64,000 nucleotides of DNA. It comes from Escherichia coli. GTDB taxonomy: Bacteria; Pseudomonadota; Gammaproteobacteria; Enterobacterales; Enterobacteriaceae. Where the stretch lies: NCBI RefSeq assembly GCF_003991155.1, contig NZ_CP031293.1; one strand, given 5' to 3'. Below the pieces are notes generated by a model that did no database searches, was not told the origin of the DNA, and saw nothing but the letters and a program-made list of their open reading frames with translations. This document shows positions 13,284 to 63,416 of this stretch, in pieces (position 1 is the first letter of the stretch; each line of letters opens with the position of its first letter). The position numbers and the translations under genes are program-made.

Positions 13284-13775
13284 TCAACGCATTATTTTTT
13301 CGCCGCGCGAAAGTCCGACCACACCAGAGCGAGCAACTTCCACAATTTTCGCCACATCGCGAATCGATGCTAAAAATGCATCAAGCTTATCGCTGGTACC
13401 TGCTAATTGAACGGTATAAAGCGAGGGTGTGACATCGATAATTTGCCCACGGAATATTTCCGTATTACGTTTCACTTCGTCACGCCCGTAGCCGCTGGCC
13501 TGAATTTTCACCAGCATGATTTCCCGCTCAACATGCGCCCCCTGCCCCAACTCGCTCACGCGTAATACATCGACCAGCTTGTGTAATTGCTTTTCGATCT
13601 GCTCAAGCACTTTTTCATCGCCCACGGTCTGGATGGTCATACGCGATAATGTCGGATCGTCGGTTGGCGCAACGGTCAGGCTTTCAATGTTGTAGCCACG
13701 CTGGGAAAAAAGGCCAATCACGCGGGATAACGCGCCTGATTCATTTTCGAGTAAGACTGATAATATCCGGCGCAT
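13284..13775 (-). CDS. ilvH: IlvH, acetolactate synthase III small (regulatory) subunit
   Basis: Internal start [19 protein letters not shown] gives 163 aa; directly follows ilvI. Confidence 0.9.
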
Positions 13776-30107: not shown

Positions 30108-30959
30108 TCACGACCTGTGCGGATAATGAGGGTTTAAGAAAAGAAAAAGCGGTCTTTCAAAGGGAGATTCTGAAAACTTTATAGCTCCCGAACTTGATAA
30201 TGAACTATACAACTCATGATTTATTCTGTTTTTATCTTTATAATAATTAGTAATAGGTCTATTATTATATTGATTATATAACAATGTTGAAAAAGACTCA
30301 TCTAATGGCTTTATATAATTTAACCATTCTGGAAGCTTCTTTTTTATTAGTTGATTTTTTTTAAAAGGAGGATGGGTTGTAAATAAGAATGGCGTAAACT
30401 CAGTATTTTTAAAATTCCCTGGCGCTCCATATGTATCCCATATTTGTAAGGCTTTTGTGTAAGATAAAGGTTTTGCCAATAAAAGTGGATCGGGGCCTGT
30501 TCCAAATACACGATAAAAACCAATCAAGTCTGAGACTAAATCTTCTGCACTAAATCCGCTATCAGTATACCAGTTAAAAATAAATGAGTTTTGCCATGCT
30601 TCAAACCTCTTCGCAGTTCCATACATTAACGTTAAGGCAACTCTTGCTTTAAGAGTGGGTGAAAGACATGAACGAACCATAACCTTCGTATAAACACCGG
30701 TATGAAATGTAAGATCTACTCCTAATATTTTTTCCCGAATTCCCATTTCCTGATGATAATCAACAGGAAAATACCAATCATGAAATTCATCGTAATATGT
30801 TGAAAAATGTTCTTGCTCCAATTTTCTTTTTAATATTCTGGCATCTTGTCCCTGAGCATGCCCCAAATCGATCCAACCTAACTCTTCGGTATAAACTAAT
30901 CCATACTTTTTCGTTGTTGCAAATATTCCATCAGTAATATCGTTACGTTTGCTCATCAC
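30108..30959 (-). CDS. Hypothetical protein, 283 aa; candidate effector/toxin of a two-gene cassette, function unknown
   Basis: ORF with GAGGGGAG RBS upstream of a GTG-ATG start; single Cys; AT-rich codon usage unlike the flanking genes; absent from the K-12 araC-yabI interval. Confidence 0.6.
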   Translation of the reverse strand: MMSKRNDITDGIFATTKKYGLVYTEELGWIDLGHAQGQDARILKRKLEQEHFSTYYDEFHDWYFPVDYHQEMGIREKILGVDLTFHTGVYTKVMVRSCLSPTLKARVALTLMYGTAKRFEAWQNSFIFNWYTDSGFSAEDLVSDLIGFYRVFGTGPDPLLLAKPLSYTKALQIWDTYGAPGNFKNTEFTPFLFTTHPPFKKNQLIKKKLPEWLNYIKPLDESFSTLLYNQYNNRPITNYYKDKNRINHELYSSLSSSGAIKFSESPFERPLFLFLNPHYPHRS

Positions 30960-61429: not shown

Positions 61430-61499
61430 TGCATCTCCAGAAATCATGAAGGAAACGTCGTTCATATCGGTGGTGTTAATTACAGATATCACGCCCTTT

Positions 61500-61660
61500 A
61501 ATTTGGAAATAAAACTTTAATCACCAATATTGAAAATGTCACACGCAGATAAATCCAACTTTCAATATTGTTAAGCTCCTCACCAATATTGAAAACATGG
61601 CGTAGCAAAAAGAAATTTTCAATATTGTTTTATGGATCACCAATATTGAAAGTCAGATGC
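61500..61660. promoter_or_regulatory. fix-cai divergent control region with five copies of the palindromic core CAATATTG (CaiF/CRP/FNR-regulated region)
   Basis: tcaccaatattgaaa x3 (about 61520, 61579, 61637) and ttttcaatattgtt x2 (about 61560, 61616). Confidence 0.6.
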
Positions 61661-61898
61661 TATTTTTTTACTCACAATCAAACTCATCACATTGATAAAC
61701 AATGAATATTTACACAAAAACGCCCTGTTTTTACCCGATAAAAAACTGTGACTAACATCACAGAACGCAGCCAATTGAATACCCATTATGAGTTAGCCAT
61801 TAACGCGTCCACGAGGTTAATAATAATTATATTAAATGTTAACAAAAATAAAACAAACGGGAACGCAAAATAAATATTCGTTTTCACAGTGGAATTAA

Positions 61899-63416
<1,518 letters not shown>

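Follow-up and report, generated by a model that had tools for sequence, protein, structure and literature searches.

The control region between the divergent genes fixA and caiT of Escherichia coli raises a simple question: how many binding sites does the regulator CaiF have there? The descriptions in PMC12083890 and PMC3680233 give only two, F1 and F2. An earlier note, made from the sequence alone, described a five-fold array of a short palindrome in the same region and remarked that it looks more extensive than a two-site model. Here we ask which copies of this array the published sites account for, and what role the remainder may have. The window referred to throughout is the whole stretch of E. 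coli DNA that was analysed, 64,000 nucleotides in length; the features discussed are collected in Table 1.

The array and the published CaiF sites

The five-fold array between fixA and caiT is real, and all of its copies lie inside 61500-61660. In a scan of the window the core CAATATTG was found five times within 124 bp (61525-61648; starts at 61525, 61563, 61584, 61620 and 61641), where 1.1 occurrences would be expected in the whole 64 kb. The window as a whole holds eight matches against 1.11 expected, a number reached in none of 100 shuffles. The three matches outside the array (3625, 5633 and 50812) are without the AAA flank, and the 11-mer CAATATTGAAA, which has the AAA/TTT flank, is present in five perfect copies, every one of them in the array. 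These copies alternate in orientation as A-B-A-B-A (A three times, B twice), with core centres 38, 21, 36 and 21 bp apart, so the regular interleaving described earlier is indeed seen. The earlier count of three copies of a motif and two of its inverse stands for the motif, since TCACCAATATTGAAA occurs exactly three times (61521, 61580 and 61637), but not fully for the inverse: the 14-mer TTTTCAATATTGTT occurs only once (61616-61629), the second inverse copy is cTTTCAATATTGTT (61559-61572), beginning with C, and only the 13-mer TTTCAATATTGTT is found twice. Near-matches elsewhere in the window, at 13682 and 30282, are probably due to chance; the second of these is a B-type element with one mismatch, TTTTCAACATTGTT (30280-30293), distant from the cai locus. 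The ORF listing stretches fixA to a GTG at 61492, and homology to K-12 puts its start at the ATG given in Table 1.

Table 1. Coordinates of the features of the fixA-caiT control region in the window (a dot marks features given no strand)
Feature	Position	Strand	Remarks
fixA	ATG 61429	minus	start set by homology to K-12
fixA-caiT divergent intergenic control region	61430..61901	.	472 bp
Conserved box AATAAAAC	61508..61515	-	always 5 bp from copy 1; fix strand GTTTTATT
Predicted sigma-70 fix promoter	61514..61542	-	-35 GTGACA 61542..61537; 17-bp spacer 61536..61520; -10 TAAAGT 61519..61514
Copy 1 ('A1'), unpaired A-type site TCACCAATATTGAA	61521..61534	+	core CAATATTG 61525-61532; outside published dyads
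Fix-proximal CaiF dyad, copies 2+3	61560..61594	.	exact pattern; identical in K-12; PMC12083890, PMC3680233
CRP-like TGTTA-N6-TCACC in fix-proximal dyad spacer	61569..61584	.	8/10, centre 61576.5
Cai-proximal CaiF dyad, copies 4+5	61617..61651	.	exact pattern; identical in K-12; PMC12083890
CRP-like TGTTT-N6-TCACC in cai-proximal dyad spacer	61626..61641	.	7/10, centre 61633.5
Perfect CRP consensus TGTGACTAACATCACA, class II site of cai promoter	61747..61762	.	10/10, centre 61754.5
caiT	ATG 61902	plus	gene start

According to PMC12083890 and PMC3680233, which summarize experimental work of Buchet et al., the CaiF sites F1 and F2 are each 11-bp perfect inverted repeats 13 bp apart, TTTCAATATTG-N13-CAATATTGAAA. 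The window contains exactly two matches to this pattern, the two dyads of Table 1, and in both the core centres are 21 bp apart, or two helical turns. The earlier association with the paired inverted-repeat half-sites of CaiF was right. All five copies carry the 11-bp perfect repeat (TTTCAATATTG or CAATATTGAAA), occupy the divergent cai-fix intergenic position and are identical in sequence to the K-12 DNA for which CaiF binding is reported; the 13-bp separation is found in both dyads and not at copy 1. Taken as a whole, the five copies are almost certainly an array of CaiF operators in the control region shared by the divergent cai and fix genes.

Because a two-site model already comprises four half-sites, the real excess is a single copy (61525-61535): the array does go beyond the published sites, but it is not a much larger array. 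The earlier note had proposed a comparison with the intergenic sequence of K-12, and held that an identical arrangement fully accounted for by F1 and F2 would refute its view. The arrangement in K-12 MG1655 proves to be the same base for base, in all five copies and in their spacing, but F1 and F2 cover only four of the five. Relative to F1/F2 of K-12 (Buchet et al. 1999, as summarized in PMC12083890 and PMC3680233), copies 2-5 have the same locus and sequence, whereas copy 1 is unpaired, lies nearer fixA inside the predicted fix core promoter and falls outside the two-site description. The locus, the regulator, four of the five copies and the K-12 arrangement were already known. What appears to be new here, on comparative grounds, is the recognition and support of a fifth, unpaired and deeply conserved CaiF-type site in the predicted fix core promoter, and of variation in copy number among genera; Buchet 1998/1999 may mention copy 1.

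Identity to MG1655 is 98% across 61430-61674. The intergenic region is 100% identical to that of E. coli 2016C-3878, and of the 5426 complete E. coli genomes 5391 contain it. Around copy 1, a 53-bp stretch is kept without a single change in 5292 of the 5380 E. coli genomes compared. Three of the roughly 5400 matches to the cai-fix control region in the E. coli genome collection are on plasmid-class records. CaiF autoregulation through the array motif was rejected: CAATATTG is absent from the K-12 caiF promoter, and the only two matches with one mismatch are at chance level and inside coding sequence. We likewise rejected an RNA element at the array, since no Rfam family matched the window's intergenic region or seven related loci, and a coding role, since the only ORFs that overlap the array are short and unconserved.

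CRP motifs, copy 1 and the predicted fix promoter

A scan with the CRP consensus TGTGA-N6-TCACA, scored out of ten bases, identified one perfect site on the cai side and a weaker CRP-like motif in the spacer of each CaiF dyad, the two nested motifs being 57 bp apart (Table 1); matches at 7/10 are common in the window, at 2.8 per kb. The pentamers of the cai site are kept in all aligned Escherichia, Citrobacter and Salmonella, and the N6 spacer varies. A perfect TGTGA-N6-TCACA upstream of cai together with two weaker fix-side motifs is like the arrangement of CRP sites in divergent catabolic promoters, but here, unlike in the usual CRP class I/II sites, the weak motifs are nested within CaiF dyads and have 1-2 bp in common with the CaiF cores. 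Because of this overlap CRP and CaiF must either co-occupy the DNA or compete for it.

These positions can be set beside earlier numbering: the abstract of Buchet 1998 reportedly places one CRP site at -41.5 relative to cai and two, at -69.5 and -126.5, relative to fix, with the cai and fix starts 289 bp apart. The position of the motif centred at 61576.5 fits the "CRP site 2 at -69.5 of fix" of that abstract; the 57 bp between the nested motifs equal 126.5 minus 69.5, and the CRP and start numbers agree with the motif centres within 1 bp. On this numbering the cai start would be at about 61796 (K-12 42037) and the fix start at about 61507 (K-12 42325; reportedly as in Buchet 1998 and RegulonDB), the latter in agreement with the predicted promoter. 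The array would then lie between the two starts and presumably be untranscribed. Since each dyad encloses a CRP-like motif, the targets of CaiF and cAMP-CRP are interdigitated upstream of the fix promoter; the perfect CRP site serves the cai promoter.

A hypervariable 100-bp segment (61675-61775) separates the CaiF array from the cai core promoter; its identity to K-12 is only 68%, compared with 98-100% in its flanks. About 641 of the 5426 complete E. coli genomes, LF82 among them, carry the allele of the window (at least 95% identity), and in most other E. coli genomes the segment is too diverged for blastn to report. Within it the CRP pentamers TGTGA/TCACA are kept, and K-12 has another base at five of the six spacer positions that they enclose. 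Further toward cai, the 5' leader of Escherichia albertii (L002) has a 10-bp insertion, AAACAAAAAG, relative to E. coli.

On the fix side, copy 1 has no partner. In a base-by-base comparison, the sequence that begins the dyad spacing of 13 bp away on its left (11 bases, 61501-61511) agrees with the half-site at four positions only, and a degenerate partner was rejected on that count; to its right a 24-bp gap separates it from copy 2, an arrangement opposite to that of a dyad. Its 16-mer, ATCACCAATATTGAAA (61520-61535), is identical to that of copy 5. This 16-mer takes up the 17-bp spacer in the predicted fix promoter, which is the sole fix-direction promoter found on the fix strand by a consensus scan of weak discrimination (three sites against 2.5 expected). 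Next to it, the conserved box of Table 1 reads GTWTTATT on the fix strand and contains a -10-like hexamer (TTTTAT in Escherichia, TATTAT in distant genera, TTTAAT in Proteus), from which we infer that the box may act as a -10 element. The Escherichia/Citrobacter/Salmonella clade has a second -10-like hexamer, TAnnGT, 5 bp nearer copy 1, and in either -10 register copy 1 would sit at roughly -13 to -32 of the predicted promoter. In genera where the TWTWAT box is the only -10-like element, a -35-like GTRACA can be read 22 bp away.

Two further elements were observed nearby. One is a fix-leader element at 61473-61493, downstream of the presumed fix start; it reads ACAGATATCACG in the window and AATAGAAATACCATGATT in distant genera, and its conservation extends across families. 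A GATC Dam site at 61634-61637 overlaps the left edge of copy 5 (gGATCACC), and GATC also overlaps the promoter-proximal copy in Proteus mirabilis, Hafnia, Edwardsiella, Serratia, Leminorella and Limnobaculum; Dam methylation could affect binding at A-type sites overlapped in this way.

A location over the predicted core promoter is what would be seen if copy 1 were conserved for a reason other than CaiF, either as core-promoter DNA or as the target of another factor; TCAC is, for example, a CRP right half-site, and there is a 7/10 CRP-like match at 61528-61543. We find this explanation improbable. The A-type arms of the CaiF dyads have the same 14-15 nt as copy 1, a CRP left half-site is missing where the spacing would require it (the pentamer is TAAAA here, TAATA in distant genera, each with two of five bases), and the spacers of sigma-70 promoters do not normally show such conservation. 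A conserved TCAC lacking the CRP left half-site suggests that the recognition unit is an asymmetric 14-15-mer, of which the B arms would be weaker inverted versions.

Copy 1 and array size across Enterobacterales

A CaiT-based scan with one genome per species yielded 80 loci; in 55 of them, all from Enterobacterales, fixA and caiT are divergent. Of 56 fixA-caiT regions of Enterobacterales, 54 contain the module AATAAWAC-N5-TCACCAATATTGAA, and these come from about 29 of 30 genus-level labels, the first of these counts overstating the number of independent observations because the species sample is rich in close relatives. In a site-anchored alignment of 44 species, copy 1 carries 1.7-2.0 bits per position over the 14 nt of TCACCAATATTGAA, and most flanking positions carry 0.5-1.2 bits. 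The alignment argues strongly that copy 1 is under purifying selection and is held 5 bp from the -10-like box. In this comparison it is the best-conserved copy, and the only one present in nearly all Enterobacterales with divergent fixA-caiT, and for this reason it is probably the ancestral CaiF site. The only clear exception among the 56 is Entomohabitans teleogrylli (L037), which has one dyad and no AATAAWAC-N5-TCACC module.

The number of copies differs among genera, and the spacing is largely kept. In the species compared, core spacing within a dyad is always 21 bp and copy 1 is 38 bp from copy 2 in 35 of 40 (range 38-40), and the inner A-to-B distance is 34-38 bp across loci. Three copies are found in Yokenella, Pluralibacter, Trabulsiella, Atlantibacter and two other Enterobacteriaceae, and five in Escherichia, Citrobacter, Salmonella, Phytobacter, Pseudocitrobacter and Intestinirhabdus. 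Proteus has seven in a regular 38/21/38/21/38/21 spacing, that is, three dyads and the unpaired copy. Dyads are missing altogether from Hafnia, Edwardsiella, Serratia H1w, Leminorella and Limnobaculum, where one A-type site, (G)ATCACCAATATTGAA, stands beside the same left-hand box. Budvicia, also without dyads, has two direct A-type copies 27 bp apart in both species (L048, intergenic positions 298-338, about 2605-2645; L081, intergenic positions 266-306, about 2611-2651). Copy-number change can be followed at L031 (Proteus mirabilis, about 2493-2685) and at L027, L028, L030, L032-L034 and L046; a single site is exemplified by L045 (Edwardsiella hoshinae, 2575-2588) and likewise by L047, L049, L050, L052, L053, L021, L044 and L051.

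In distant Enterobacterales the box beside the lone A-type site reads AATAATAC. There 250-335 nt separate the site from the ATG of fixA, so that the fix leader should be long. Neither a conserved ORF nor an Rfam family was found in this leader; in the long intergenic regions of distant species no conserved small ORF was seen and tblastn found no caiF. In Edwardsiella, caiF has been reported (PMC2764856).

Array units resemble each other beyond the sites themselves, and this similarity points to tandem duplication of a 57-59-bp unit; the array has expanded and contracted by whole units of this size. Such paralogy could also mean that copy 1 is a non-functional remnant of tandem duplication and that the two-site model is complete, in keeping with PMC12083890 and PMC3680233, which give F1 and F2 only. 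A relic would decay, yet about 30 genera share an almost unchanged 14-mer, with its neighbouring bases free to vary. Copy 1 is also kept in genera that have no dyads, and in Providencia it is perfect while the first dyad has a degenerate left arm. Because of this conservation we consider a neutral relic very unlikely. Copy 1 is likely, on the comparative evidence, to be a functional CaiF-type site. The overall reading that we favour, with some reserve, is that the array consists of CaiF operators, that copy 1 is a conserved fix-promoter CaiF-type site, likely ancestral, and that the dyads are accessory.

How copy 1 may act

CaiF of K-12 scores 28.5 bits against PF07180 (CaiF_GrlA; curated cut-off 25) and matches the GrlA chain 4KT5_C with E = 0.001, GrlA (4KT5) being the only solved relative. 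GrlA is the characterised homologue of CaiF (PMC9979310), and in PMC10877973, PMC4856446 and PMC4730234, which cite the EHEC/EPEC data on GrlA and LEE1 (ler) P1 of Islam et al. 2011, it is reported to activate LEE1 P1 by a MerR-like binding in the -35/-10 spacer. As for the likeness to our locus, the regulator belongs to the same CaiF/GrlA family, and copy 1 would occupy the corresponding spacer position of the predicted fix promoter. There are differences as well. The LEE1 spacer is a suboptimal 18 bp without dyad symmetry, whereas the predicted fix spacer is 17 bp with a palindromic core CAATATTG; CaiF is outside the MerR family, and the targets of MerR have 19-20-bp spacers. A predicted spacer of the optimal 17 bp in E. 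coli, and not the suboptimal 18-20 bp of GrlA/MerR targets, is an argument against activation from the spacer. If a dyad is required, moreover, the lone site may bind CaiF weakly or not at all.

In the mechanism we propose, copy 1 would be the promoter-proximal CaiF site, working from the spacer of the fix promoter, and the dyads with CRP would be accessory upstream modules, multiplied by tandem duplication of the 57-59-bp unit to give arrays of 3, 5 or 7 copies. By analogy with GrlA, we regard activation by copy 1 from the spacer as a genuine possibility that falls somewhat short of probable. More tentative still is the fuller proposal that the lone TCACCAATATTGAA in the fix core promoter across Enterobacterales, and not the dyads, is both the ancestral and the primary operator, with CaiF activating in a GrlA-like manner and F1/F2 added later as enhancer-like modules.

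The main rival to spacer activation is a braking or architectural role, in which copy 1 is a CaiF site but not an activator of fix. It would either occlude the fix core promoter at high CaiF, or serve together with the dyads as an anchor of a long-range complex required to activate cai about 270 bp away. Sites between -35 and -10 are more typical of repressors, and this is where copy 1 lies relative to the predicted elements; the strictly kept distance of 38-40 bp between copies 1 and 2 would likewise suit a brake or an anchor. According to the abstract of Buchet 1998, transcription of cai reportedly depends on a 50-bp sequence that overlaps the start of the fix mRNA. Even so, we think such a role rather unlikely. 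Hafnia, Edwardsiella and others have only the copy 1-type site, and if CaiF induces fix in these genera they would hardly be left with no activating site; the homologue GrlA, moreover, activates from the spacer position (PMC10877973).

CaiF-based carnitine biosensors and strains engineered to produce L-carnitine use the cai-fix region as their working part, and papers up to 2025 design around the two-site model. If copy 1 is not functional, the locus is textbook material. If it is functional, and the sole site in several genera, a minimal CaiF-responsive promoter could be much smaller than present designs assume, and CaiF could offer a tractable model for spacer activation in the CaiF/GrlA family, to which a key virulence activator of EHEC also belongs.
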